Notes: generated by a model not told the origin, from the sequence alone. A DNA stretch of 64,000 nucleotides from Gammaproteobacteria bacterium (GCA_033852135.1 JAWSVB010000010.1:152716-216715); one strand, 5' to 3'. Positions 40,117 through 62,149 are shown, counted from the first letter of the stretch. Translations and numbers: made by a program.

Positions 40117-42204
40117 ATGATAAATGGTGCAAAAATATTATTTGCTGATGATGATGTTGGAATGCGCCTTTTGATAAGGGAATCATTAGAACGGTCAGGG
40201 TTTCATGTTTTAGAGGCAGAAAATGGGGAGCAGCTTCTAGATCTATTTGAAATAGAAACTCCAGACTTGATTATGCTTGATGTGATGATGCCAGATATAG
40301 ATGGCTTCACCCTATGTAAACAGATTCGTGAAAGCGATAATGGGAAGAATGTTCCAATTCTTCTAGTTACAGGTTGCGACGACCTTGACTCTATAGACGA
40401 GGCATACAAGGTAGGGGCAACTGATTTTATATCAAAGCCGGTGAACTGGGGGTTATTAGGTTATCGGGTTAAATATTTAGTTAGAGCAAGTGGTTTGCAA
40501 AGAGAGTTAATTGTAAACCAGGAGAAGCTTGAGTATGCGCAAACAATTGCAAAAGTGGGAAGCTGGGAGCTAGAAAAAGGTGTTCTGGATTGCTCCAAAG
40601 AGACCTTAAGGATTTTTGAGATTGATGAGGGTGAAAAGCTTTCTAAGTTGCAACATTTATCAAATAGAATTCATGAAGAAGATCGTGAACAGGTGCTTGA
40701 ATCAATAAATGATTGCCTTGATAGAGGTGATACTGTTGATATTCAGTTTAGATTGGATGCAGATGATGAGGATATGAAATATGTCTCTTGTCATGGTGAG
40801 CCAAAGAAGGGAGCCGCAGATAATACAATAGGTATTGCCGGAGTCTTCCAGGATATTACCGAGCAAAAGAAACAAGAAGAAAAAATTGTATTTTTAGCAT
40901 TTCACGATGTATTAACTGGTCTGGCAAACTCACGTTTATTTAAAGAGAGATTGCAGGGCGCAATGACACTAGCTGAGCGCCACAAGTTAAATGTAGCGGT
41001 GTTATCGGTTAACGTTGATAGATTTAAAAGAATAAACGACACACTTGGAAACAAGGTGGGTGATAAACTTCTAAAAATAGTTGCTGGCAGAATTGATGAT
41101 GCAGTAAGAGGGTCTGATTTTGTAGCCAGAAACTCAGTAAGTGATGACTCATCAGTATCAAGGTTATCTGGTGATGACTTTACAATAATGCTATCCCAAG
41201 TACCAAACAGCGATATCGCAGGTAAAGTAGCAACAAGAATTACCGAAAAGCTAGCAGAACAATGCATAATTGATGGTCATGAGATCTATATAACAGGAAG
41301 TGCAGGAATCTCAATATTCCCAGACGATGGTTTAGATGTTGATCAACTAGTTAGAAATTCAAGCAGTGCACTTCAGCATGCGAAGCAACAAGGTGGGAAC
41401 CGTTTTTGCTATTTTGAGCAAAAAATGAATTCATCATCAATAGAAAAACTCCACATAGAAAATGATCTGCGTAAAGCGCTGGGTAAAAATGAATTTGTCC
41501 TTTTCTATCAGCCACAAGTTGATGGACATACAGGCGAAATTATCGGAGCAGAGGCGCTAATAAGATGGGTTAATGATGAGCGCGGAATGGTAGCACCATT
41601 TCATTTTATTCCAGTCCTTGAAGAAACTGGAATGATAATAGATGTTGGAGAGTGGGTGATAAGAACAACCTGCGAGCAGCAACAAAAGTGGGTGCAACAA
41701 GGTAAAAAACTGATTGATCTATCGGTTAATCTATCTGCAATACAGTTTTCTCAAGATGATTTTGTAAGTAGAGTTAAAACTATAATTGAAGAGACGAAAG
41801 CAGATCCTAAAAAAATAGTATTAGAGATAACTGAAAGCCTACTTCTTGATAATGACAGTGGAGTTGTTGAAAAGCTTGAACAGTTTAGAGATATGGGATT
41901 CTGTATATCTATTGATGATTTTGGAACAGGGTATTCATCTCTTAGTTATCTACGTAAACTCCCAATTAATGAGTTAAAAATTGACCGTTCATTCGTGAAA
42001 GATATATCTACAGAGCTTGATGATGGAACCATTGCTAAAACCATTATCGCGTTGGCCAGAAGCCTTAAGCTTGAAGTGATAGCAGAAGGAGTTGAGGTCG
42101 AATCACAGCTTGATTTCTTATTGGGTCAAGGGTGCAATAGAATTCAAGGGTTTTACTTTGGTAAACCAGTACCAGCCGAGGACCTATTGTTGCCAGATGC
42201 GTAA
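40117..42204 (+). CDS. response regulator REC-PAS-GGDEF(degenerate)-EAL; predicted c-di-GMP phosphodiesterase
   Basis: REC (LFADDD...LDVMMPDIDG). The GGDEF domain has a degenerate signature (LSGDDF instead of GGDEF). The EAL motif is intact (GAEALIRW) with downstream conserved DDFGTGYSS and KIDRSF. Confidence 0.85.
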   Translation: MINGAKILFADDDVGMRLLIRESLERSGFHVLEAENGEQLLDLFEIETPDLIMLDVMMPDIDGFTLCKQIRESDNGKNVPILLVTGCDDLDSIDEAYKVGATDFISKPVNWGLLGYRVKYLVRASGLQRELIVNQEKLEYAQTIAKVGSWELEKGVLDCSKETLRIFEIDEGEKLSKLQHLSNRIHEEDREQVLESINDCLDRGDTVDIQFRLDADDEDMKYVSCHGEPKKGAADNTIGIAGVFQDITEQKKQEEKIVFLAFHDVLTGLANSRLFKERLQGAMTLAERHKLNVAVLSVNVDRFKRINDTLGNKVGDKLLKIVAGRIDDAVRGSDFVARNSVSDDSSVSRLSGDDFTIMLSQVPNSDIAGKVATRITEKLAEQCIIDGHEIYITGSAGISIFPDDGLDVDQLVRNSSSALQHAKQQGGNRFCYFEQKMNSSSIEKLHIENDLRKALGKNEFVLFYQPQVDGHTGEIIGAEALIRWVNDERGMVAPFHFIPVLEETGMIIDVGEWVIRTTCEQQQKWVQQGKKLIDLSVNLSAIQFSQDDFVSRVKTIIEETKADPKKIVLEITESLLLDNDSGVVEKLEQFRDMGFCISIDDFGTGYSSLSYLRKLPINELKIDRSFVKDISTELDDGTIAKTIIALARSLKLEVIAEGVEVESQLDFLLGQGCNRIQGFYFGKPVPAEDLLLPDA

Positions 42205-49235: not shown

Positions 49236-49781
49236 CTACTTGCTTGCAAGATAAACTAAAATATCCTCTTTGAATTTTGAGGTGTCCAACACTTTTTTAA
49301 ACTCATCTACAATAGTGGTGGTTTCATCGCCAATTGTACCCTTTAAAATCTCTCGCCGTTTATTAGCGCTAGACTCTTTGTTTATCTTTTTTTGCCAACT
49401 TTGTGTAAATACCTTTGGCAAAGAGAAAGATAGGTTTAGTTGTTTTAAAAGTTCCCATTCACCACCATCAAGCCACGCCTCATCGCATGAGTGGCAAACA
49501 TCAAGATGGTTTTTAACCTTGCTGTCCATTTTATATTTTGTCATCAATTTACCGCATTTAGGGCAAGAAATAGCTGTCTTAGTATCACCAGTAGCAGATA
49601 AAGAAATATCATCTGAAAAAACAGGCTCGGCACAGCTTTTTTCTGCCCAATCACGGTAGAAGAAAAGAGGTATTAACTTACCATCACATTTATGACAATT
49701 CGCAGCCAAAAGGCCATCTTCAACTTTAGAAACTCTAAGATCAGCTTTATCACATTTAGGACATTTCATTAAACTACTCAC
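49236..49781 (-). CDS. tandem zf-TFIIB-type zinc-ribbon protein
   Basis: Two CPKC...C..C(D)xxWLDGGE-type modules (CPKCDKADL...CHKCDG and CPKCGKLMTKY...CHSCDEAWLDGGE). Confidence 0.65.
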   Translation of the reverse strand: MSSLMKCPKCDKADLRVSKVEDGLLAANCHKCDGKLIPLFFYRDWAEKSCAEPVFSDDISLSATGDTKTAISCPKCGKLMTKYKMDSKVKNHLDVCHSCDEAWLDGGEWELLKQLNLSFSLPKVFTQSWQKKINKESSANKRREILKGTIGDETTTIVDEFKKVLDTSKFKEDILVYLASK

Positions 49782-49975: not shown

Positions 49976-50698
49976 ATGTTAATGGAAGATTACATGAAAG
50001 AGTTTTTAGATATTGTTATTCAATTTCCAACCGTCATGTTCACAGTTCTACTTGGTGTTATCGTCCTGTATTGGATGTTAGCCGTATTTGGTGTGTTTGA
50101 TCTGGATGTATTGGATTTTGACTTTGATTTGGATCTCGATGCCGACGTAGACTTAGATCTGGATGCTGATGTAGGTGATGCTGGTGATACGCATACAAGT
50201 CACACTGGCATAGGTGGCTTTATGGCTGCTTTGGGATTAGTCGGGGTTCCAGTTACCGTAATTGTTAGCTTGATAGTGATGTGGTGTTGGTTACTTACGC
50301 TGCTGTATGGAGCATATTTACAACCAATGTTACCTGATTGGGGTTTGACCTGGGCTATATCTGCGGTAGTTGTATTTGTAAGTTTTATTATAAGCCTGTT
50401 CCTTACACAGTTTTCTATTAAACCTCTGCAGCCTCTTTTTGAGCATGAAGGAAAAGCTTTGGGCAATAAGGATATTGTTGGGCAACTATGCGAAGTTATT
50501 ACCGGAAGGGTAGATGATAAATTTGGCCAGGCTCGATACAACAAAGATGGCGCGGGTTTAATAATTGAAGTTAGAAATATGAGTGGAGCTGTTCTTAAAA
50601 AAGGGAATACTGCTCTTATAGTTGGTTATAGTGCGGAGAAGATGACCTACAGGGTAGAGCCGTATGAAAACAATTCGTATGAAATTGAAGTTAAGTAA
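49976..50698 (+). CDS. NfeD-family membrane protein with acidic DL-repeat insert
   Basis: TM helices plus a C-terminal OB-fold beta domain typical of NfeD partners of SPFH proteins. It has the insert DLDVLDFDFDLDLDADVDLDLDADVGDAGD. It lies immediately upstream of the flotillin gene. Confidence 0.7.
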   Translation: MLMEDYMKEFLDIVIQFPTVMFTVLLGVIVLYWMLAVFGVFDLDVLDFDFDLDLDADVDLDLDADVGDAGDTHTSHTGIGGFMAALGLVGVPVTVIVSLIVMWCWLLTLLYGAYLQPMLPDWGLTWAISAVVVFVSFIISLFLTQFSIKPLQPLFEHEGKALGNKDIVGQLCEVITGRVDDKFGQARYNKDGAGLIIEVRNMSGAVLKKGNTALIVGYSAEKMTYRVEPYENNSYEIEVK

Positions 50699-50730
50699 AG
50701 GTTGGTTGTTTCAATAACTAATAAGCGGTC

Positions 50731-50764
50731 ATACCGGCGAAGGCCGGTATCCAGTGTTTTATTT
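50731..50764 (+). terminator. hairpin between nfeD and flotillin gene (possible attenuator/partial terminator)
   Basis: ataccggc-gaag-gccggtat, then gttttatttc. Confidence 0.4.
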
Positions 50765-50830
50765 CTGGCTGCTGGATCGTCAGTATTTTTTATATAAATT
50801 TATGATTAAGTAAAAAAATAAGGAGTTAAA

Positions 50831-53032
50831 ATGGAAGGTTTGTTATCACCTGCAACTATCGGTATAGCTGTAATTGTTGCAATTGTATTTTTGATCCTGA
50901 TGGGGATATTGATAATGTTTGCCAAGTTCTTCTGTAAGGTTGAGCAGGGTAAAGCGATGATCGTAAATACCATGAAGGCAAGACCAATTGTCACCTTCAC
51001 CGGAAGACTGGTTCTACCTGTAGTTCATAAAGTTGAGGTGATGGATATCTCTCTAAAGAGAATCGTTATTGACCGTTCCGGTTCCGATGGTCTTATCTGT
51101 CGTGACAATATCCGTGCCGATATCTCAGTTAACTTTTTCGTCCGTGTTAACCCAACAGAGGAAGATGTACTGCGTGTAGCAAGTAATATCGGTTGTGAAA
51201 GAGCATCGGACCAAAAAGTACTCGATAATCTTTGGTCAGCTAAATTTGCAGAGGCTCTAAAAACAGTTGGTAAGCAGATGGATTTTGAGGATCTGTATCA
51301 AGAGCGTGAAAATTTCCGTGATGCAATTAAATCAGTTATTGGTGATGACCTAAATGGCTACAGACTAGAAGATGTTGCGATCGATTACTTAGAACAAACT
51401 CCAGTTGATAACCTTGATAGCCGCAATATTCTTGATGCGCAAGGTATCCGTAAAATTACCGAGCTAACTGCTGTTCAACATGTTGCTGCCAACTTGGCGC
51501 AAAATGATGAGAAGAAGCTGATAACAAAGCAAAACGTTGAAGCTCAAGAAGCTATTCTAGCTCTAGAGAGACAAAAAGCAGATGCAGAAGCAAAACAAAA
51601 ACGTGAGATAGAAACTACAGTTGCACGGGAAGAAGCATCAACAGCGCAGGTGTGTGAAGAGGAGCGCTTAAAATCTGTTCAGGCTAGGATTAAATCCGAC
51701 CAACAGATAGCCGTGGAAGAGGAAAATAAAACTCGTGAAGTTGAGGTTGCTGAGCAAGAGAGACTAAGAGTTCTTGCCATTAAGGAAGAAGAGGTTACTA
51801 GAGCTCGTGAGCTGGAAGTTGTAGCGCGTGAGAAAGAGGTTGCGATTCAGCAGATCGATAAAGAGAAAGCGGTTGAGCAGCAAAAAAGAGAGATTGCTGA
51901 TGTTATTCGTGAGCGTGTATCGGTTGAGCGTACAGTAGCAACAGAAGAAGAGAAGATAAAAGAGGTCAGAGAGGTAAGTGCTGCAGAAAGAAGTAAGCAG
52001 GTTCAGGTGATGCAGGCACAAGCTATCGCTGAAGAGCAAATGGTTAAAGAGGTCAAAGCAGCAGAAGCAGCAGAAAAAGCAGCTAAATTTGAAGCGCAAA
52101 AAGAGATCGCACTGGCTGAGGCAGAGCTTGAGTCTAGTTCTAAACTGGCAGAATCGAAGAAGGTTCTGGCAGAAGGTACACAGGCTGAACAAGCTGCTAG
52201 CGGTTTAGCAGATGCCAGGGTGAAAGAAGCTCAAGCTATTGCACTGGAAAAATATGGTAGATCAGAGGCTGATGTTGAATACCAAAAACTTTCTGCTCGT
52301 GCCAAAGGTAACGAAGAAGAGGGTATGGCCAAGGTCAGGGTTCAAGAGTCTGAAGCAAAAGTTATTAAAGAAAAAGGCGCAGCAGAAGCGTTTGCAACTC
52401 AGCAATCACTTGAAGCAGAAGCTAGCGGTATTAAGGCTCAAGGCCTTGCTGCTGTTGACGTTAAGCGTGCAGAAGCAGATGCAGTTGAACTGCAAGGTAA
52501 AGCAGATGCAGTTGCAATCAGAGAGAAATATCAAGCTGAAGCCAAAGGTCTGACTGAGAAATTCCAGGCACTTAATGGACTGGATGAAAACGGTCGCAAG
52601 CATGAAGAGTTCAGAATCGAACTTGAGAAAAACAAAGAGATTCAACTTGAAGGGATTGAAGCACAGAAAGTGCTTGGTGAAGCTCAATCTAAGATTCTGG
52701 CTGATGCCTTCCATGATGCAAATATCAACATCGTTGGTGGAGATGGTGCATTCTTCGATCGCTTTGTTAAGGCAGTATCTTTGGGTAAATCGATTGATGG
52801 CGTGGTAAACCACAGTGAGACAATCCAAAATGTTGCTGGTGATTATGTTAATGGCGATAAGGATCTGCTGGGTGATATTAAAGAGGTTCTAACTAACTCT
52901 AAGATGTCATCAGAGGATATAAAAAATCTGACCATGTCTGGAGCACTGGCTAAGTTTATGAAAGGTGGGGCGGATAAAGATCAGATCAACGCTCTGTTAG
53001 CCAAGGCAAAAGAGATGGGATTGGGTGAATAA
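50831..53032 (+). CDS. flotillin-like SPFH/Band-7 protein (YqiK/FloT-like) with very long EA-rich coiled coil
   Basis: 733 aa. An N-terminal TM helix is followed by an SPFH domain, then about 400 aa of E/A/K/Q-rich coiled coil and a C-terminal globular part. Confidence 0.85.
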   Translation: MEGLLSPATIGIAVIVAIVFLILMGILIMFAKFFCKVEQGKAMIVNTMKARPIVTFTGRLVLPVVHKVEVMDISLKRIVIDRSGSDGLICRDNIRADISVNFFVRVNPTEEDVLRVASNIGCERASDQKVLDNLWSAKFAEALKTVGKQMDFEDLYQERENFRDAIKSVIGDDLNGYRLEDVAIDYLEQTPVDNLDSRNILDAQGIRKITELTAVQHVAANLAQNDEKKLITKQNVEAQEAILALERQKADAEAKQKREIETTVAREEASTAQVCEEERLKSVQARIKSDQQIAVEEENKTREVEVAEQERLRVLAIKEEEVTRARELEVVAREKEVAIQQIDKEKAVEQQKREIADVIRERVSVERTVATEEEKIKEVREVSAAERSKQVQVMQAQAIAEEQMVKEVKAAEAAEKAAKFEAQKEIALAEAELESSSKLAESKKVLAEGTQAEQAASGLADARVKEAQAIALEKYGRSEADVEYQKLSARAKGNEEEGMAKVRVQESEAKVIKEKGAAEAFATQQSLEAEASGIKAQGLAAVDVKRAEADAVELQGKADAVAIREKYQAEAKGLTEKFQALNGLDENGRKHEEFRIELEKNKEIQLEGIEAQKVLGEAQSKILADAFHDANINIVGGDGAFFDRFVKAVSLGKSIDGVVNHSETIQNVAGDYVNGDKDLLGDIKEVLTNSKMSSEDIKNLTMSGALAKFMKGGADKDQINALLAKAKEMGLGE

Positions 53033-53056
53033 ACAACCTGTCTGATTGTAGTATGT

Positions 53057-53162
53057 GTAGGGTGGGCGCTGTTTGTAGTCGAAGCTCCCACCAATTTAAG
53101 TTTTACCAAATTACATGGTGGGCAGTGCCCACCCTACCTATTGTTTAATTTATGTAGGGTGA
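53057..53162. repeat. cluster of REP-like palindromes (GTAGGGTGGGC ... GCCCACCCTAC) after flotillin gene
   Basis: gtagggtgggcgc at 53057 pairs with gcccaccctac at 53128-53138. There is an internal perfect hairpin ggtgggca-g-tgcccacc and a further partial copy gtagggtg at 53153. Confidence 0.6.
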
Positions 53163-53211
53163 ATTGCTGATAATGATTTGGTATTAAGGATATTCAAGCA
53201 GGAGTCCAACT

Positions 53212-56200
53212 GTGAGTTCAGCAGTTTCCAATACAGACCAGCAAGAGCAAACCTTAGAATCAGGTGGTGTCTATAATGTTATTCGTAAGCGGCTTGAGGA
53301 GCATGGTTCCAGTCTTAATGATAGAGTAAGTGCTTTAAATACTCAAAGGGAGGATGCCTTTGGTAGCACAAATATCACTGTACTTGGATCGTCTCGTGTC
53401 AGAACTGAAAATAACTGTATTGCCCGTGATATTGTTTGTGTTGGTGATCTATTCCTATTTGGTTATAACGTTTATATTGGCTTAAAAACCGAGACCAAGG
53501 TAAGTGATGTTTTTAGCCTTTATCGGCAGCGTAATCAAGAGGATGAACTAGAGCTAGATCATGTACCGCTTGAGGGAACATTTCTTGATGATTCAGATTT
53601 TGTAACCGATTTTAAAGAGCTATACCAATACTATAAAGATTCAAAACTGGTTCAGTTAAGGCGAGGCATTAAAGGCAAATTGCTGGCAATATTCCAGACC
53701 GGTAGCGCAATCACAGATCAGAAGGTTTTTCGCTGGCAAGTATCAGCAGATGGTGAAGTTACATATATAGATAATCGTGGTGAGAACGATAATATAGTTC
53801 CTGAATCTCACGACTTTGAGTGGACCTTTACCACCAGAGATGACCACGTCCGTGGCAAACATTCCCATATAAACATCTTGGATGAGGTTTTTGTTGAAAC
53901 CATTGGTGGTGATCTAACTATTAAGGTGGAAGATAATACCGATGATGGCCAGGGTATATATTCAGAACTAGTAGATGATCCAAATCAGTCACTGCAAGAT
54001 GCTCAGATAGCTTACGCAAAACTTGGAACCCTTATACTGCTAAAAATCAGGCCGTATAAGGAGAAGGATTGGCGTTACCTTATCTACAATAGTCGTGCGC
54101 AAAAAGTAAAAAGAATTGACCAACTTGGTTTGTCAGCAATTCAGTTACCAGAGGATCATGGTGTTATCTTCCCTGGTGGATATTACCTGCAAAATGGTGA
54201 GTTTAAGATTTACGACACCAATGTCGATGATATGTATTTTCTGCGCTCTATCATCTCGCCAAATGGTGAAGATGTTATGTATGTCTTCTACCATTATGAG
54301 GAGGGGCGCTTTGTTCTCCTCTCGTATAATTTAATTCGTAAAGAGTTAGAAAAACCTGTTGTCTGTAATGGTTATGGCCTTTTGGAAAACGGTCATATGG
54401 CAGTATTCCGTGAGCAGAGTCAGGATCCTACCAGAATACATAATCTGCAGTTGTGGCAAACTCCATTCGTGACAGAGGAGTTTGTTGATAAAAATGCCCA
54501 GGAAAACGATTCTGTATTTACCAAAATAGGTAACCCAGATCTGGTTCGTGCAATATCCGATATGTTTAGCGTTTGCAGATCTATAGATAACCAAGAGCCA
54601 ACCTTGGCAAGCTATGAAGATCTAATCGGTTCAATCACCAGAATTATTGATGCATATCATTGGTTATCCAATAGTGAGATTGGCAACTTTGTTGAAGAAC
54701 TAAATCAGATAAGCGCAACTGCTGAACAAGTATTAGATGAGTTCGAAAAAGTTGTAGCTATCAAGAAGCAGGCAACAGAAGCTGTAACCAAGGCTAAAAC
54801 TGAACAAGTAAAACTTATTAAAGAGGTAAAACTTGGAGATTGGTCGACCATAGAGGGTTATATCAATGCCCTAGCTAGATTAAGAACCCAGCGTGGCAAT
54901 CTGATAACTATAAAAGATCTACGCTATGTTGATCTTGAGTCGGTAAAAAGTTTAGAAAATGATGTAATTGAAGCCTTTGATCATGTAAGTAGAAACACCG
55001 TTGATTTTCTTCTTAAAGATGATGCATTCACTCCATATATTGATTCTATAGAGCAGCAGAGTGAACAGATAAACGAGATTAAAACCAGAGTTGACCTAAA
55101 GCCGGTAATTGAAAAACTTGAAGAGATTGGGGAAGGTCTCTCATTATTGACCGAGGTTATTAATCAGCTGGAGATTGAAGATACAACCTCCAGAACTCAA
55201 ATCTTGGAAGGGATATCATCGCTATTTGGAAATCTTAATAAGACCAAGGCAGCAGCAGACATACGCTGGAAAGAGATAGGTAAAAAAGAGGATGTGGCGG
55301 AATTTGGCGCCCAGTTCTTGCTGCTATCTCAAAGCGTATCTAGCGCTATCTCCATGTCCGATACACCAGAAAAGGCAGATGAGAACTTATCCCGCTTATT
55401 GCTGCAGCTAGAAGACCTTGAAGGGCGCTTTGGTGAGCATGAACAATTTGTAGCCGATCTCACCGAAAAAAGGGAGGAGATCTACTCAGCCTTTGAGAGT
55501 AAGAAACAATCATTGGTTGAGCAAAAGCAAAGTAGAGTGCAATCACTTGCTAACGCAGCCGATAGAATTATTGCTGGCATAACTCGTCGGGCAAAAACCA
55601 TAAAAAGTATTGATGAGCTTAACGGCTATTTTGCATCCGACCAGATGGCTCTTAAAGTCAGAACTATAGTTGAACAATTGCGTGAGCTGGATGATAACGT
55701 CAAAGCCGATGATATTGAGAGCAAAATAAAAACTGCACTCGATAGATCGATTCGTTCGCTGCGCGATAAGATAGATATCTTTGCTGACGGTGGAGACACC
55801 ATAAAACTTGGTACCCATAGCTTTAGTGTAAATACGCAAGAACTTGATCTAACCCTGCTATCGCGTAATGATAAACTGGCATTGCATCTTACAGGTACAG
55901 ATTACTACCAAGAGATTGAAGATGAGGCATTAAATGCTGCTCAGGATTATTGGTCACAAACCATAGTATCTGAAAATGATGATGTATATCGTGGTGAATA
56001 TCTAGCATCCTCAATCTATTTTGATGCCGAACATGCAACCAATGGCACCACTCTGGCAGACCTACGTAAGTTAATTACGCAAGAGGATGCCCTAGATCAG
56101 TTTGTAAAAGACTACGCCGCCTCAAGATATGATGAAGGTTACGAGCGGGGTGTGCATGATCATGATGCTGCCAGAATCTTAGAGAAATTACTCTCTTTAA

Positions 56201-58482
56201 AAGAAACGACGGGTCTATTAAGTTTTAGCACAGTTGCCAGATCATTAGCCCTACTATTTTGGGTTTACAGCAAAGGCAATATAACTCGAGAACACTGGCA
56301 GCTACAATGCAGTGGTTTTGGAAAGATCGCAGATTTCTTTGGTGATAGTCCAGATATCGTTGCACTAAAGTCAGAGTTGTCTCAGGCAATTGAAAAGTTC
56401 TTACAGCATGAAAATATTAACTACAGTGAATCGGATCTAAAGATTGCAGGATCCTATCTTGTAGAAGAGCTAAAGCAAGATAACTTAGCTTTTGTGATAA
56501 GTGGTAAGGCAGATGACTTAGCCAATCGATTGCTAACTTATTTAGATCGTAAGAACCAATTGCAAAGCTTCGAAGCCAGCATAAAAGATCTGGATGGAGC
56601 TGTATCTAATCAGGTGCGCTTGGTTGTAGGTTGGCTCAATGGCTTCTTAGGAACCCTTGATGAGAATAAAGCGCAAACACTGGCAAAGTACACCCTAGAG
56701 GCGGCAGTGTTTCTGTTAATTCGCGATAAGGCAGAAAGGCGAATAAGTGATGCAGTTACCGTAGCTCAGATAGATGGGTTATTGGGGCAGCACAATATAA
56801 TTGAAGATCGCAAACTTACAGTTGACCTACCGGAGTTTATTCAACGCCTAGCGGCATATCATAATACCGTTGTTCCGGGATTCAGACAGCTACGCGAGCT
56901 AAAAACCAATATCACCAAAGCAGAGCGAAATTCACTGCGAGTAGATGAGTTTATCGCGCAAGAGCTAACCTCATTTGTGCGTAATAAACTTATTAACGAT
57001 GTTTACCTCCCCCTTGTCGGCACCAACCTTGCCAAACAGATGGGAACCGTAGGTGAAAATAAACGTACCGATCTTATGGGAACACTGCTACTTATATCGC
57101 CACCTGGATATGGTAAGACCACCCTGATGGAATATATTGCCAATCGAGTTGGGTTGGTGTTTATGAAGATAAACTGCCCAACCATTGGTCACTCAGTAAC
57201 CTCTATTGATCCTGAGGAGGCGACCAGTGCTGCGGCAAAACAGGAGTTAAATAAGCTCAATCTAGCCCTGGAGATGGGGAGCAACGTGATGCTCTATCTT
57301 GATGATATTCAGCATACCAATCCCGAGTTCTTGCAGAAGTTTATCTCCCTCTGTGATGCGCAAAGAAAGATAGACGGTGTATGGCGAGGCAATGCTAAAA
57401 CCTACGATCTGCGTGGTAAAAAGTTCTGTGTCATCATGGCTGGAAACCCATATACAGAATCGGGCGAAGCATTCAAAATACCAGATATGCTTTCTAATCG
57501 TGCTGATGTATATAATCTAGGTGACGTATTTAGCGGTAATGAAGATATCTTCAACCTAAGTTACATTGAAAATGCGATGACATCTAATAGTGTTCTCGCT
57601 CCGTTAGCATCACGCGAGATGGATGATTTTTATGCATTTATCAAGATGGCGCAGGGCGGCCAAATAGCCACAAACGCGCTGAAACATAATTACTCTGGTG
57701 CTGAAGTAAATGAGATTGTAGCGGTGTTAAAGCACCTGTTTACAATTCAGAGCGTGATATTAAAAGTAAATTCGCAATACATCGCATCTGCATCCCAGGA
57801 TGATGCTTATAGAACCGAGCCACCATTCAAACTGCAAGGCTCATATAGAAATATGTGCCGCATGGCAGAAAAAGTAGTGGCAATAATGAATCAGGAAGAG
57901 ATAGATCAACTGATTCTGGATCATTATATTGGTGAAGCACAAACCCTGACCACCGGAGCTGAAGAGAATCTACTCAAGCTGGCGGAGTTACGCGGCTTAA
58001 TGTCTCCAGAGCAAGAGCAGCGATGGGGTGAGATCAAAAAGACCTATAGCAAAAACCAAAGTATGGGTGGAGATGAAGACCCGGTAACTAAAGTTGCAGG
58101 TCAGTTAAACCTACTTTCAGGTCAAGTTGATGGAATCAAGTCTGCAATACTCACAGCGTCTGATGCTAATAACTCACCGCAGATCGAACTATTGGAAAAG
58201 TTTGATAACACCATGGAGCTATTGGCCAAAATGCAGCTACAGGTTCAAGTGACAAATCAACCAGTGCCAGGTCTGGAACCACTACTTGGAACTATGGCCT
58301 CAACTATCGAAGGGTCATTGCTGCCTGTTGTAAAAGCGATGGAGCATAAGTTAAGACTCGACCATGATATCTGGGATACCCTAAATGGTGTGGTGAAAGA
58401 GCTAAAAGGGATAGATAAAGAAAGATTCGGTAAGTTAGAGATGAATAAAGAGGTGCGTGGAGTCTTTGACCCGAATGAGTAA
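53212..58482 (+). CDS. giant (1756 aa) coiled-coil protein with C-terminal MoxR/AAA_5-like ATPase module; function unknown
   Basis: One uninterrupted ORF. Walker A LLLISPPGYGKTT is at nt 57101-57124 (aa ~1297). Walker B VMLYLDDIQH is at nt ~57286-57315. A sensor-like stretch CVIMAGNPYTESGEAFKIPDMLSNRADVYNLG resembles MoxR/RavA/dynein-type AAA_5. The N-terminal ~1250 aa have no motif I recognise, with predicted coiled coils around aa 480-560 and 700-820. Confidence 0.8.
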   Translation: MSSAVSNTDQQEQTLESGGVYNVIRKRLEEHGSSLNDRVSALNTQREDAFGSTNITVLGSSRVRTENNCIARDIVCVGDLFLFGYNVYIGLKTETKVSDVFSLYRQRNQEDELELDHVPLEGTFLDDSDFVTDFKELYQYYKDSKLVQLRRGIKGKLLAIFQTGSAITDQKVFRWQVSADGEVTYIDNRGENDNIVPESHDFEWTFTTRDDHVRGKHSHINILDEVFVETIGGDLTIKVEDNTDDGQGIYSELVDDPNQSLQDAQIAYAKLGTLILLKIRPYKEKDWRYLIYNSRAQKVKRIDQLGLSAIQLPEDHGVIFPGGYYLQNGEFKIYDTNVDDMYFLRSIISPNGEDVMYVFYHYEEGRFVLLSYNLIRKELEKPVVCNGYGLLENGHMAVFREQSQDPTRIHNLQLWQTPFVTEEFVDKNAQENDSVFTKIGNPDLVRAISDMFSVCRSIDNQEPTLASYEDLIGSITRIIDAYHWLSNSEIGNFVEELNQISATAEQVLDEFEKVVAIKKQATEAVTKAKTEQVKLIKEVKLGDWSTIEGYINALARLRTQRGNLITIKDLRYVDLESVKSLENDVIEAFDHVSRNTVDFLLKDDAFTPYIDSIEQQSEQINEIKTRVDLKPVIEKLEEIGEGLSLLTEVINQLEIEDTTSRTQILEGISSLFGNLNKTKAAADIRWKEIGKKEDVAEFGAQFLLLSQSVSSAISMSDTPEKADENLSRLLLQLEDLEGRFGEHEQFVADLTEKREEIYSAFESKKQSLVEQKQSRVQSLANAADRIIAGITRRAKTIKSIDELNGYFASDQMALKVRTIVEQLRELDDNVKADDIESKIKTALDRSIRSLRDKIDIFADGGDTIKLGTHSFSVNTQELDLTLLSRNDKLALHLTGTDYYQEIEDEALNAAQDYWSQTIVSENDDVYRGEYLASSIYFDAEHATNGTTLADLRKLITQEDALDQFVKDYAASRYDEGYERGVHDHDAARILEKLLSLKETTGLLSFSTVARSLALLFWVYSKGNITREHWQLQCSGFGKIADFFGDSPDIVALKSELSQAIEKFLQHENINYSESDLKIAGSYLVEELKQDNLAFVISGKADDLANRLLTYLDRKNQLQSFEASIKDLDGAVSNQVRLVVGWLNGFLGTLDENKAQTLAKYTLEAAVFLLIRDKAERRISDAVTVAQIDGLLGQHNIIEDRKLTVDLPEFIQRLAAYHNTVVPGFRQLRELKTNITKAERNSLRVDEFIAQELTSFVRNKLINDVYLPLVGTNLAKQMGTVGENKRTDLMGTLLLISPPGYGKTTLMEYIANRVGLVFMKINCPTIGHSVTSIDPEEATSAAAKQELNKLNLALEMGSNVMLYLDDIQHTNPEFLQKFISLCDAQRKIDGVWRGNAKTYDLRGKKFCVIMAGNPYTESGEAFKIPDMLSNRADVYNLGDVFSGNEDIFNLSYIENAMTSNSVLAPLASREMDDFYAFIKMAQGGQIATNALKHNYSGAEVNEIVAVLKHLFTIQSVILKVNSQYIASASQDDAYRTEPPFKLQGSYRNMCRMAEKVVAIMNQEEIDQLILDHYIGEAQTLTTGAEENLLKLAELRGLMSPEQEQRWGEIKKTYSKNQSMGGDEDPVTKVAGQLNLLSGQVDGIKSAILTASDANNSPQIELLEKFDNTMELLAKMQLQVQVTNQPVPGLEPLLGTMASTIEGSLLPVVKAMEHKLRLDHDIWDTLNGVVKELKGIDKERFGKLEMNKEVRGVFDPNE

Positions 58483-58537: not shown

Positions 58538-58635
58538 CCTCGTTCCCACGCTCTGCGTAGGAATGCATACTGGATTTAATATAGGGGCAAGGCTCTGAAC
58601 TCTCGTTCCCACGCTCTGCGTGGGAATGCATATGG
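58538..58635. repeat. two direct REP copies (cctcgttcccacgctctgcgtRggaatgcata) upstream of the RAYT gene
   Basis: Copies are at 58538-58574 and 58600-58635. Each contains the palindrome cccacgc-tct-gcgtggg. Confidence 0.8.
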
Positions 58636-58644
58636 GATAAAAAT

Positions 58645-59175
58645 ATGGGACGAAATAGATATAATTTCACAGAGAAAAATTTACCTCACTTTATGACGTT
58701 TACAGTGCTTCATTGGATTCCTATATTTACACGCCAATCGACAGTGGATATTGTTTTTGACTCACTTAGATACCTTATGAATGAAGGTATGAGAGTTCAT
58801 GCTTATGTAGTGCTTGAAAACCACTTACATCTAATATCCCAAAGTGAACAATTAAGTCGGGATGTTTCCCGCTTTAAGTCTTATACAGCTAGAAGATTGA
58901 TTGAATATTTGGAAGAACACAATGTTAGTAGAATATTGGATCAACTCAAGTTTTATAAAAAAGCCCATAAACCTGATAGGGCTTATCAGTTTTGGGAGGA
59001 AGGTGTTCATCCTGAGTGGATACAAAATGAAGAAATGATGCGGCAGAAAATTAACTATATTCACGATAATCCGGTTAAACGCGGGTATGTTGATTTGCCA
59101 GAGAATTGGCGTTATTCAAGTGCTAGAGCTTATAAAGGTCAAGAGAGTTTGCTAGAGGTAGATAGGTTTTGGTAA
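58645..59175 (+). mobile_element. REP-associated tyrosine transposase (RAYT, IS200/IS605-like TnpA_REP)
   Basis: 176 aa. An HxH-type motif (ENHLHLI) and a catalytic Tyr region (RYSSARAY) typical of Y1 HUH transposases. It is flanked by inverted REPs. Confidence 0.8.
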
Positions 59176-59180
59176 GTAAG

Positions 59181-59213
59181 TATGCATTACCACGCAGAGC
59201 GTGGGAACGAGAG
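59181..59213. repeat. inverted REP copy (tatgcattaccacgcagagcgtgggaacgagag) downstream of RAYT
   Basis: Reverse complement of the upstream REP with one mismatch. It completes the REP-RAYT-REP (REPtron) unit. Confidence 0.8.
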
Positions 59214-59698
59214 TGATGTCTCCTGAGCAGGAGCAGCGATGGGGTGAGATCAAAAAGACCTATAGCAAAAACCAAAGTATGGGTGGAGATGAAGATCCGG
59301 TAACTAAAGTTGCAGGTCAGTTAAACCTACTTTCAGGTCAAGTTGATGGAATCAAGTCTGCAATACTCACAGCGTCTGATGCTAATAACTCACCGCAGAT
59401 CGAACTTTTGAAAAAGTTTGATAACACCATGGAGCTATTGGCCAAAATGCAGCTACAGGTCCAGGTGACAAATCAACCAGTGCCAGGTCTGGAACCATTA
59501 TTGGGAACCATGGCCTCAACTATCGAAGGGTCATTACTACCTGTTGTTAAAGCGATGGAGCATAAGTTAAGACTCGACCATGATATCTGGGATACCCTAA
59601 ATGGTGTGGTGAAAGAGCTAAAAGGGATAGATAAAGAAAGATTCGGTAAGTTAGAGATGAATAAAGAGGTGCGTGGAGTCTTTGACCCGAATGAGTAG
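59201..59698 (+). CDS. free-standing second copy of the giant protein's C-terminal 160-aa module (duplicate of 58000-58482); intact ORF
   Basis: The 483-nt stretch 59216-59698 is about 97% identical to 58000-58482. Identity begins exactly at an in-frame ATG and ends exactly at the stop codon. 14 of about 15 substitutions are synonymous (one E to K). The track ORF's extra N-terminal residues MGTRV are read out of the REP. Confidence 0.6.
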   Translation: MGTRVMSPEQEQRWGEIKKTYSKNQSMGGDEDPVTKVAGQLNLLSGQVDGIKSAILTASDANNSPQIELLKKFDNTMELLAKMQLQVQVTNQPVPGLEPLLGTMASTIEGSLLPVVKAMEHKLRLDHDIWDTLNGVVKELKGIDKERFGKLEMNKEVRGVFDPNE

Positions 59699-61920: not shown

Positions 61921-62149
61921 GACCCTAAAATAATTTATTATTGACGATTTTTTATCGACACTCACTGAATTTACCCCTTAAGTACGAGTATTACAATTTA
62001 TGTGTCATATTTCTAGTAACCTAATTATTTTGGTAGGTTATGGGGTAGCTATCTATTTTGATCTTTAATATCTCTTTACCACATATTAAATTAATTATTC
62101 AAAATTTTGCTTACCAGTAAAATCAATTTATAATTCTCCCTCTTAAAAA

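Follow-up and report, generated by a model that had tools for sequence, protein, structure and literature searches.

The stretch of DNA analysed here, 64,000 nucleotides from a Gammaproteobacteria bacterium (GCA_033852135.1 JAWSVB010000010.1:152716-216715, in the following the window), carries three co-oriented genes, which encode a small membrane protein related to YqiJ, a flotillin of the YqiK type and a giant AAA+ protein of 1756 amino acids. That these three genes belong together as a module is nearly certain, and, judged by its gene content, the triad is an abbreviated, PspA-less form of a larger, widespread operon. We hold it to be moderately probable that this operon serves in envelope stress and membrane maintenance, and that the giant protein acts in it as an AAA+ remodeller of flotillin assemblies, PspA assemblies or both. 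The preliminary description of this DNA had placed the three genes correctly and had regarded them as the best candidate in the window for an undescribed system. The operon has, however, been described by Ravi et al. in 2024 (mSystems, PMC11237479), and its genes in Pseudomonas aeruginosa bear the names bacC, bacD and bacE. The window presents no new kind of system, and offers a clean minimal example with three genes and without PspA or PLD; the operon itself is already known, and the interesting part is the role of its giant ATPase. The three open reading frames are the following.

49976 to 50698, + strand: probable YqiJ-type (short NfeD-like, DUF1449) inner-membrane protein, 240 amino acids, assigned by profile comparison, hydrophobicity and gene position

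50831 to 53032, + strand: YqiK-type flotillin, 733 amino acids, assigned by hhalign to YqiK, by Band_7 in orthologs and by conserved position

53212 to 58482, + strand: giant AAA+ protein of the DUF3686/DUF7902 family, 1756 amino acids, predicted to be cytoplasmic, ortholog of P. aeruginosa BacE/PA3728; the start codon is GTG, with a Shine-Dalgarno AGGAG 8 nucleotides upstream

To exemplify how strictly these genes are linked, consider the best 80 of at least 600 loci from a pattern scan with one genome per species, which were taken with 10-kb flanks, made up to 81 with the window, and compared by tblastn and all-against-all clustering of open reading frames. In 79 of the 81 loci an ortholog of the flotillin (43-60% identical, about 50%) is encoded upstream of the giant gene, and the other two end at contig ends. 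Among the 79 informative loci, the flotillin gene thus precedes the giant gene without exception. The gap between the two genes has a median of 85 nucleotides, with overlapping stop and start codons in nine pairs and a distance of 2-6 kb in three of the 79 (L024, L032 and L055). The flotillin gene is itself preceded by a YqiJ-like gene in 75 of the 81 loci, as it is in the window. The recurrence of the giant gene downstream of the flotillin gene, which the preliminary description had suggested looking for in other genomes, is thus general among the informative loci, and a giant gene with no flotillin neighbour, which would have spoken against a module, was not found in any surveyed locus.

The surveyed loci come from at least six phyla and include Pseudomonas, Xanthomonadales, Alteromonadales, Xenorhabdus, Methylomonas, Beta- and Zetaproteobacteria, and further Myxococcota, many Actinomycetota, Planctomycetota and Acidobacteriota. 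The flotillin-giant pattern is also seen, in annotated records, in Hymenobacter (Bacteroidota), Deinococcus (Deinococcota) and Vibrio. The identities of the proteins also vary together: when pairwise identities are compared in a mirror-tree analysis, the correlation is r = 0.91 between the giant protein and the flotillin, and r = 0.85 between the giant and the YqiJ-like protein.

An experimental counterpart is found in P. aeruginosa, where the giant protein (P0131 in our set, 1746 amino acids) is encoded in a locus with the order DUF2170-PspA-213 amino acids-688 amino acids-giant-PLD-YaeQ-RecJ-LasB; this gene order means that the giant protein is PA3728, or BacE. The genes bacABCDEF (PA3732-PA3727), the "biofilm-associated cluster", are all six co-transcribed from a putative sigma-54 promoter (PMC10948618). 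When the published primers for reverse-transcription PCR of bacD/bacE are mapped on the P. aeruginosa locus, the product across the flotillin-giant junction has exactly the 557 bp that were published (PMC10948618); primer 16180/90_R, which mismatches the related Pseudomonas loci, fits the giant gene of P. aeruginosa apart from one substitution and one additional base. The proposal that the three genes form one module is accordingly borne out by strict linkage, by co-varying identities and by this transcript across the junction. BacB-F are up 6- to 13-fold in a bacA mutant (PMC10948618), osmotic shock induces BacB (PMC2587700), and mutants in bacA and bacB have defects in biofilm formation, rhamnolipid, swarming and virulence.

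Compared with bacABCDEF, the window has orthologous YqiJ-like, flotillin and giant genes (30%, 54% and 47% identical to BacC, to BacD/PaFlo3 and to PA3728, respectively) in the same order and orientation. It differs by lacking bacA (DUF2170/CesT-like), bacB (PspA) and bacF (PLD), by a divergently oriented zinc-ribbon gene, and by REP-like spacers, REP standing for repetitive extragenic palindromic; further, no sigma-54 -24/-12 motif like that of P. aeruginosa was seen upstream of the module when the sequence was read by eye. The operons that Ravi et al. described by comparative genomics combine CesT/Tir-PspA genes with genes for a band-7/flotillin protein, a YqiJ/YuaF protein with three transmembrane (TM) segments and an AAA+ protein, sometimes with a PLD gene, and "abbreviated operons", to which the window corresponds, are covered too; for the ATPase only a chaperone-like function, helping membrane-linked complexes to assemble, is proposed there (PMC11237479). 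In the literature searched, nothing was found on a combination of flotillin, NfeD and MoxR, nor anything on BacE beyond the 2024 paper on BacA.

The larger form of the operon is also seen in our survey. DUF2170 (YjfI/CesT-like) and PspA/IM30 genes directly precede the module, in the same orientation, in about 21-23 of the 81 loci; 11 loci have a gene of the PLD family after the giant gene, and in Hymenobacter the order is CesT/Tir-PspA-DUF1449-flotillin-giant. A still longer array is found on pQBR103, the megaplasmid of P. fluorescens SBW25 (NC_009444.1 84437-97641, loci L087/L088), where ten co-oriented genes follow each other in the order YjfI-PspA-rhomboid-DUF2491-DUF350-DUF1190-glutathionylspermidine-synthase-like-YqiJ-like-SPFH-giant. 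Here, a PspA cluster like yjfIJKLMC of Escherichia coli and a rhomboid protease gene are joined to the YqiJ-like/SPFH/giant triad, and the two groups of PspA contexts, treated separately by Ravi et al., come together.

The identities of the two smaller proteins rest on profile-profile comparison, because neither of them has any match among the Pfam and NCBIfam models, even at E < 10. For this comparison, the reference proteins YqiJ and YqiK of E. coli were taken from MG1655, and alignments of the orthologs from related loci were turned into family profiles. The flotillin profile aligns with YqiK over 404 columns with 29% identity (hhalign probability 99.9%, E = 6.6e-33), and the alignment takes in the SPFH domain together with some 270 helical residues. 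Pfam Band_7 matches five of 24 orthologs and exceeds its cut-off in one of them (L050), while a profile search of the PDB gives a weak match to the helices of human flotillin-1 (E = 0.11). The protein begins with a single membrane anchor, the hydrophobic segment at residues 1-38, and continues with the SPFH domain (about residues 36-215), a helical region of about 400 residues that is rich in Glu and Ala, and a conserved C-terminal motif, IVGGDGxFFDxFVKA. Between residues 215 and 620, Glu and Ala make up 37% of the chain. Both the original label of flotillin and the remark on some 400 residues rich in Glu and Ala are in agreement with these results.

The 240-residue protein has three hydrophobic segments and is arranged as TM1, an acidic loop rich in Asp, TM2, TM3 and a C-terminal OB-like domain. 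Its family profile can be aligned with YqiJ of E. coli in TM2, in TM3 and in the OB-like part at the C-terminus (hhalign probability 92.6%, E = 4.4e-7). Among 23 orthologs, Pfam YqiJ_N matches three and YqiJ_OB one; the Hymenobacter ortholog is annotated as DUF1449, and a profile search of the PDB gives a weak match to the OB domain of YuaF, at the correct position (E = 0.42). Taken together, this supports with moderate confidence a protein of the YqiJ/YuaF (DUF1449) type, with several membrane passes and an OB fold. The canonical model of the NfeD C-terminus, PF01957, does not match the protein in the window or any of the 23 orthologs at E < 0.1, and "NfeD", as the gene was first called, should therefore be read as YqiJ-type "short NfeD", in the usage of PMC13086221: the relation to NfeD stands in this short form, but not the canonical domain. 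The true start of the gene is probably not at 49976, but at the third in-frame ATG, which corresponds to M7 (49994, MKEFLD...), and in the family alignment the orthologs align only from there.

The same pair of genes, in the same order, is found in E. coli as yqiJ-yqiK and in Bacillus subtilis as yuaF-yuaG(floT), with homology at the profile level. In E. coli, however, no giant ATPase gene follows yqiK, and sibD/ibsD take its place.

The giant protein is matched by Pfam DUF3686 (PF12458) at residues 35-483 with full coverage of the profile (E = 7.9e-196), by DUF7902 (PF25472) at residues 604-687 (E = 3e-26), and by AAA/AAA_5, above the cut-off, as a single module at residues 1292-1415. It has no hydrophobic segment and should for this reason be cytoplasmic. 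More than 5800 homologs were found. The identity over the full length of about 1750 residues is about 50%, a level seen with more than 100 homologs and, among other groups, in Gammaproteobacteria, Myxococcota and Acidobacteriota. When the N-terminal 480 residues were compared with 1.84 billion cluster representatives, only 697 relatives were obtained; those of full length all have 1600-2036 residues, with the DUF3686 domain always at the N-terminus, and the shorter DUF3686 entries are probably fragments from incomplete contigs. From this uniformity of length and domain position follows that the family is tight and its architecture invariant.

The domain structure was predicted with two AlphaFold models built from alignments of 63 sequences, one for residues 1-1190 with a predicted local distance difference test (pLDDT) of 82.8, and one for residues 1101-1756 with a pLDDT of 78.5. 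The first model consists of an N-terminal helix, a beta-propeller, very long helices, a small beta domain and a helical domain, and the second of an AAA+ core with its lid and then a helical tail, for which the prediction is poor. The parts are placed as follows.

53377 to 54459, + strand: beta-propeller, the core of DUF3686, residues 56-416 (AlphaFold, pLDDT mostly 80-92)

54532 to 55779, + strand: long-helix, coiled-coil or spectrin-like region, residues 441-856, including DUF7902 (nucleotides 55021-55272)

55798 to 56721, + strand: small beta domain, then helical domain with the invariant motif EGYERGxHD, residues 863-1170 (AlphaFold, alignment columns)

56959 to 58071, + strand: single MoxR-like AAA+ module, residues 1250-1620 (Pfam, AlphaFold, Foldseek, motifs)

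The structure of the N-terminal part, which the preliminary description had wished to see predicted, is thus modelled as a propeller followed by long helices, and the long coiled coils that it had read from the sequence find their counterpart in the latter. With Foldseek, the propeller matches the clathrin terminal domain, the WD40 part of Vps11, YncE, PON1 and ROD, and for the helical region at residues 441-856 the fold search gives generic bundles only.

In the databases, the family carries names that suggest another function: NCBI has "DNA repair ATPase" or "AAA family ATPase", JGI has "MoxR-like ATPase", and Pfam describes DUF3686 as "ATPase involved in DNA repair". On this reading, the protein would be an ATPase of DNA repair and its adjacency to the flotillin gene functionally meaningless. 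Apart from the names given by Pfam and NCBI, one could cite in favour of this the weak matches to RuvB, at the level of the P-loop, and recJ, which lies three genes downstream in P. aeruginosa. The likeness to RuvB is, however, generic for AAA+ proteins and ranks below NorQ and CbbQ, and recJ was seen nearby only in P. aeruginosa, with no DNA-repair gene recurring among the 81 loci. Moreover, Pfam, profile and fold searches revealed neither a nuclease nor a helicase nor a DNA-binding domain in the giant protein, no mention of DUF3686 was found in a full-text search of the literature, and the strict linkage is to genes for membrane proteins. A function in DNA repair is for these reasons hardly credible, and the name looks like a propagated misannotation, which finds no support in domains, in neighbourhood or in the literature searched.

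The AAA+ module has its Walker A motif (PPGYGKTT) at residues 1297-1304, Walker B (LYLDD) at residues 1361-1365 (nucleotides 57292-57306), sensor 1 at N1412, and a candidate arginine finger at R1430. All four are invariant in the 63 sequences, as is the loop between beta2 and alpha2, and in the AlphaFold model a beta-hairpin precedes sensor 1 at residues 1386-1399. When the model of residues 1101-1756 is compared with known structures by Foldseek, the best are NorQ, with E = 2e-7 and a TM-score of about 0.6 on the target, and CbbQ2, and after them come RuvB, MCM and Lon. The sequence identity to the structural matches of the MoxR class is about 13%, and a sequence-profile search of the PDB with the giant protein gives matches to the P-loop only. 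A C-terminal ATPase of the MoxR/AAA_5 type, as first proposed, is therefore what the structural comparison returns. The accompanying remark that a VWA partner is missing also holds, in so far as no VWA domain was found in those neighbours in the window that were tested, nor in the recurrent families of neighbours that were scanned, which together cover a subset of the open reading frames of the loci.

NorQ/NorD, CbbQ/CbbO and RavA/ViaA thus provide the best structural match for the AAA+ module, but in the giant protein this module stands behind about 1250 residues of propeller and helices, has DD in Walker B, and goes with no VWA partner that was found. The match nevertheless opens an alternative, in which the giant ATPase would, as a chaperone, mature or insert some other client, a membrane protein concentrated in a flotillin microdomain, in the manner of NorQ/NorD with nitric-oxide reductase and of CbbQ/CbbO with Rubisco; the flotillin would be only its platform, and neither the flotillin nor the PspA polymer would be remodelled by it. 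Here, NorQ and CbbQ2 count in its favour as being ATPases of client maturation, the beta-propeller might bind the client in place of the missing VWA adaptor, and a chaperone-like role is what Ravi et al. proposed (PMC11237479). On the other hand, no candidate gene for a client recurs next to the module: the recurrent genes encode YqiJ-like proteins, flotillin, DUF2170, PspA, PLD and zinc-ribbon proteins, and the remaining families that recur and were tested (LysR, GGDEF, kinases, ABC) are of a generic kind. The strict linkage to the flotillin, with co-variation of the sequences, also speaks against it. We regard this alternative, the main one, as unlikely, though worth keeping in mind.

With the giant protein as a remodeller, the module could work in the following way. 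The YqiK-type flotillin would be anchored in the inner membrane and form an oligomeric scaffold, perhaps a ring or cage, on its cytoplasmic face, by analogy with the SPFH complexes that have been solved. The YqiJ-type protein, with its three TM segments, would be the NfeD-like membrane partner of the flotillin and act by way of the OB-like domain at its C-terminus. The giant protein, which is soluble, would dock on this scaffold with its N-terminal beta-propeller and its long helical arm, and its single MoxR-like AAA+ module would probably be hexameric. Under membrane stress, ATP would be spent on assembling, disassembling or reshaping the flotillin polymer and, in many lineages, PspA, a polymer of the ESCRT-III type, may be a substrate as well. 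A coupling of the flotillin to a machine driven by ATP had been suggested from the gene order in the window; this suggestion is a reasonable one, and the conservation (linkage in 79 of 79 informative loci, r = 0.91) supports it well. A dynamin-like function, which had been mentioned at the same time, has no basis, since the motor is an AAA+ protein and not a GTPase.

There is an established precedent for an SPFH oligomer and an AAA+ hexamer working together at the inner membrane, namely HflK/HflC with FtsH. FtsH is, however, a membrane-anchored protease of the classical AAA+ clade and its cage is periplasmic, whereas the giant ATPase is soluble, MoxR-like and without a protease domain. As to PspA, SPFH cups have been reported to activate or recruit it (PMC7619361), and in B. 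subtilis the SPFH protein YdjI is reported to tie PspA to the membrane.

Bacterial flotillins and PspA are intensively studied. In its strongest form, our proposal is that the giant DUF3686 protein docks on flotillin cages as an ATP-driven remodeller, and disassembles or recycles polymers of flotillin, PspA or both. This we put forward tentatively, as a possibility more doubtful than assured; if it were true, the protein would be the functional counterpart of Vps4 in bacteria, from which a Vps4-like ATPase appears to be absent according to a 2025 review (PMC7619361). The likeness to ESCRT-III/Vps4 is a functional analogy only: PspA, of the ESCRT-III family, is encoded together with an AAA+ ATPase in about one quarter of the loci, but the AAA+ module of the giant protein belongs to another clade and no MIT domain was detected. 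In P. aeruginosa, PA3728/bacE is a genetically tractable ortholog for this idea.

Several observations weigh against the giant protein as a remodeller of flotillin or PspA. ATPases of the MoxR class usually mature client complexes or insert cofactors into them, and do not depolymerise scaffolds. In Walker B an Asp replaces the usual catalytic Glu, and the turnover of ATP may therefore be slow or regulatory. The arrangement of the domains is uncertain in the two AlphaFold models, with predicted template modelling (pTM) scores of 0.51 and 0.58. When the window was searched by tblastn with BacA and BacB of P. aeruginosa and with proteins of locus L008, homologs of PspA, DUF2170 and PLD were absent from all of its 64 kb, which means that any link to PspA would here have to act in trans. 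A REP-like spacer and a hairpin with a promoter-like site, both described below, weaken the case for co-transcription in this organism, which by homology is likely. Further, deletion of paFlo3 in strain PA14 has a mild effect, with about 20% less biofilm, and the literature searched yielded no experimental work on the giant protein as such.

A further alternative is that the module serves anti-phage defence or abortive infection, so that the flotillin/NfeD pair senses membrane damage by phage and the giant ATPase is the effector. The genes PA3728-PA3732 are among 17 that are up-regulated in all phage-infected P. aeruginosa samples (PMC12041424), defence systems commonly feature large ATPases with long helices, and there are weak PADLOC matches to IetA and TRIP13, confined to the P-loop region. 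Induction by phage would, however, be expected anyway for an envelope-stress operon of the Psp type. The PADLOC matches are not significant either: with version 2 the best have E values of 6e-4 to 2e-3, and neither the flotillin nor the YqiJ-like protein has any. No relatives were found in 2.9 million viral contigs, and only 13 of 72,556 plasmid records, mostly megaplasmids or chromids, carry the module. An identity of about 50% over 1750 residues across phyla, together with an invariant architecture, is unlike the fast evolution of defence genes. The surroundings are also those of ordinary chromosomal genes and not of a defence island. On the 5' side of the module lie genes for a GGDEF-EAL response regulator, MotA/MotB, a PilZ protein, a tyrosine phosphatase, YdjM and a chemoreceptor, in all a context of motility, chemotaxis and cyclic di-GMP (c-di-GMP), and on the 3' side lies truA; the G+C content is about 40% throughout the window, and the module shows no compositional break. 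The idea of defence, which had been raised for this locus among other roles, has in this way gained no positive support, and we consider it improbable.

The spacer between the flotillin and giant genes, which was mentioned above as bearing on co-transcription, is placed as follows.

53033 to 53211, + strand: structured spacer of 179 nucleotides with REP-like palindromes, between the flotillin and giant genes, with AGGAG of the giant gene at its 3' end

It contains a GC-rich palindrome (GGTGGGCAGTGCCCACC) that is flanked by GTAGGGTG repeats. The repeat GTAGGGTGGGCnnTGCCCACC occurs at 53058-53163, and one related copy lies about 32 kb upstream, at 20601-22. The RNA of the spacer folds with -55.5 kcal/mol, which is more stable than shuffled sequences (z = -2.7), and a consensus scan found no terminator-like site on the + strand of 53033-53211. 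Folded in this way, the spacer could lower the expression of the giant gene relative to that of the flotillin gene. The spacer had at first been called a REP cluster; there are indeed REP-like palindromes in it, but the repeat is another one than the REPs associated with RayT (CTCGTTCCCACGCTCTGCGTGGGAATGCAT, in three copies at 58539-59211).

In the intergenic region between the YqiJ-like and flotillin genes (50731-50806) there is a GC-rich hairpin (ATACCGGCGAAGGCCGGTAT) with a run of T (50731-50750), and 3' of it a sigma-70-like site (TCGTCA-18-TATGAT) is followed by a strong AAGGAG ribosome-binding site. The flotillin gene may thus have a promoter of its own, or the hairpin may attenuate transcription; terminator-like and promoter-like sites are no more frequent than in shuffled sequence.

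Upstream of the module, and divergent from it, lies a gene that is found with a few of its relatives.

49236 to 49781, - strand: protein with two zinc ribbons, 181 amino acids (Pfam Zn_ribbon_TFIIB)

Homologs that are 23-30% identical stand between the flotillin gene and the giant gene in the betaproteobacterial loci L053, L066 and L076, and downstream in L027, and the gene is absent from the closest relative, L083. A larger zinc-ribbon family was rejected, as it was inflated by shadow open reading frames that overlap the flotillin gene in genomes of high G+C content; the real members are those of the four loci just named and of the window. Zinc ribbons are listed among the contexts of PspA by Ravi et al. 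2024 (PMC11237479), and the protein may be a wandering, occasional accessory of the module.

As parts of the module, LysR proteins, GGDEF response regulators, Ser/Thr kinases and ABC ATPases were all rejected, being generic families in variable positions. Genes of GGDEF-type c-di-GMP signalling are found at most 10 kb from the module in 12 loci (e.g., L004, L038, L040 and L086), with positions and strands that vary; in the window, such a gene lies at 40117-42204, and in Deinococcus one is directly 5' of the module. Since the family is very common, its recurrence near the module may be due to chance.

At the 3' end of the giant gene, the last 483 nucleotides (58000-58482) are repeated at 59216-59698 with 97% DNA identity and one or two amino-acid changes. 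Between the two copies there are two direct REPs (58539-58638), rayT, the gene of a REP-associated tyrosine transposase (58645-59175), and, at 59179-59214, a REP in inverted orientation. In the closest relative, truA begins 69 nucleotides after the stop codon of the giant gene, from which follows that about 3.6 kb, to about position 62100, have been inserted in the window. The inserted DNA comprises the REPs, rayT, the copy of the gene end and three open reading frames on the minus strand, one of them DUF4262. That the differences between the two copies are almost purely synonymous suggests that one of them derives from a related allele, rather than from decay in place.

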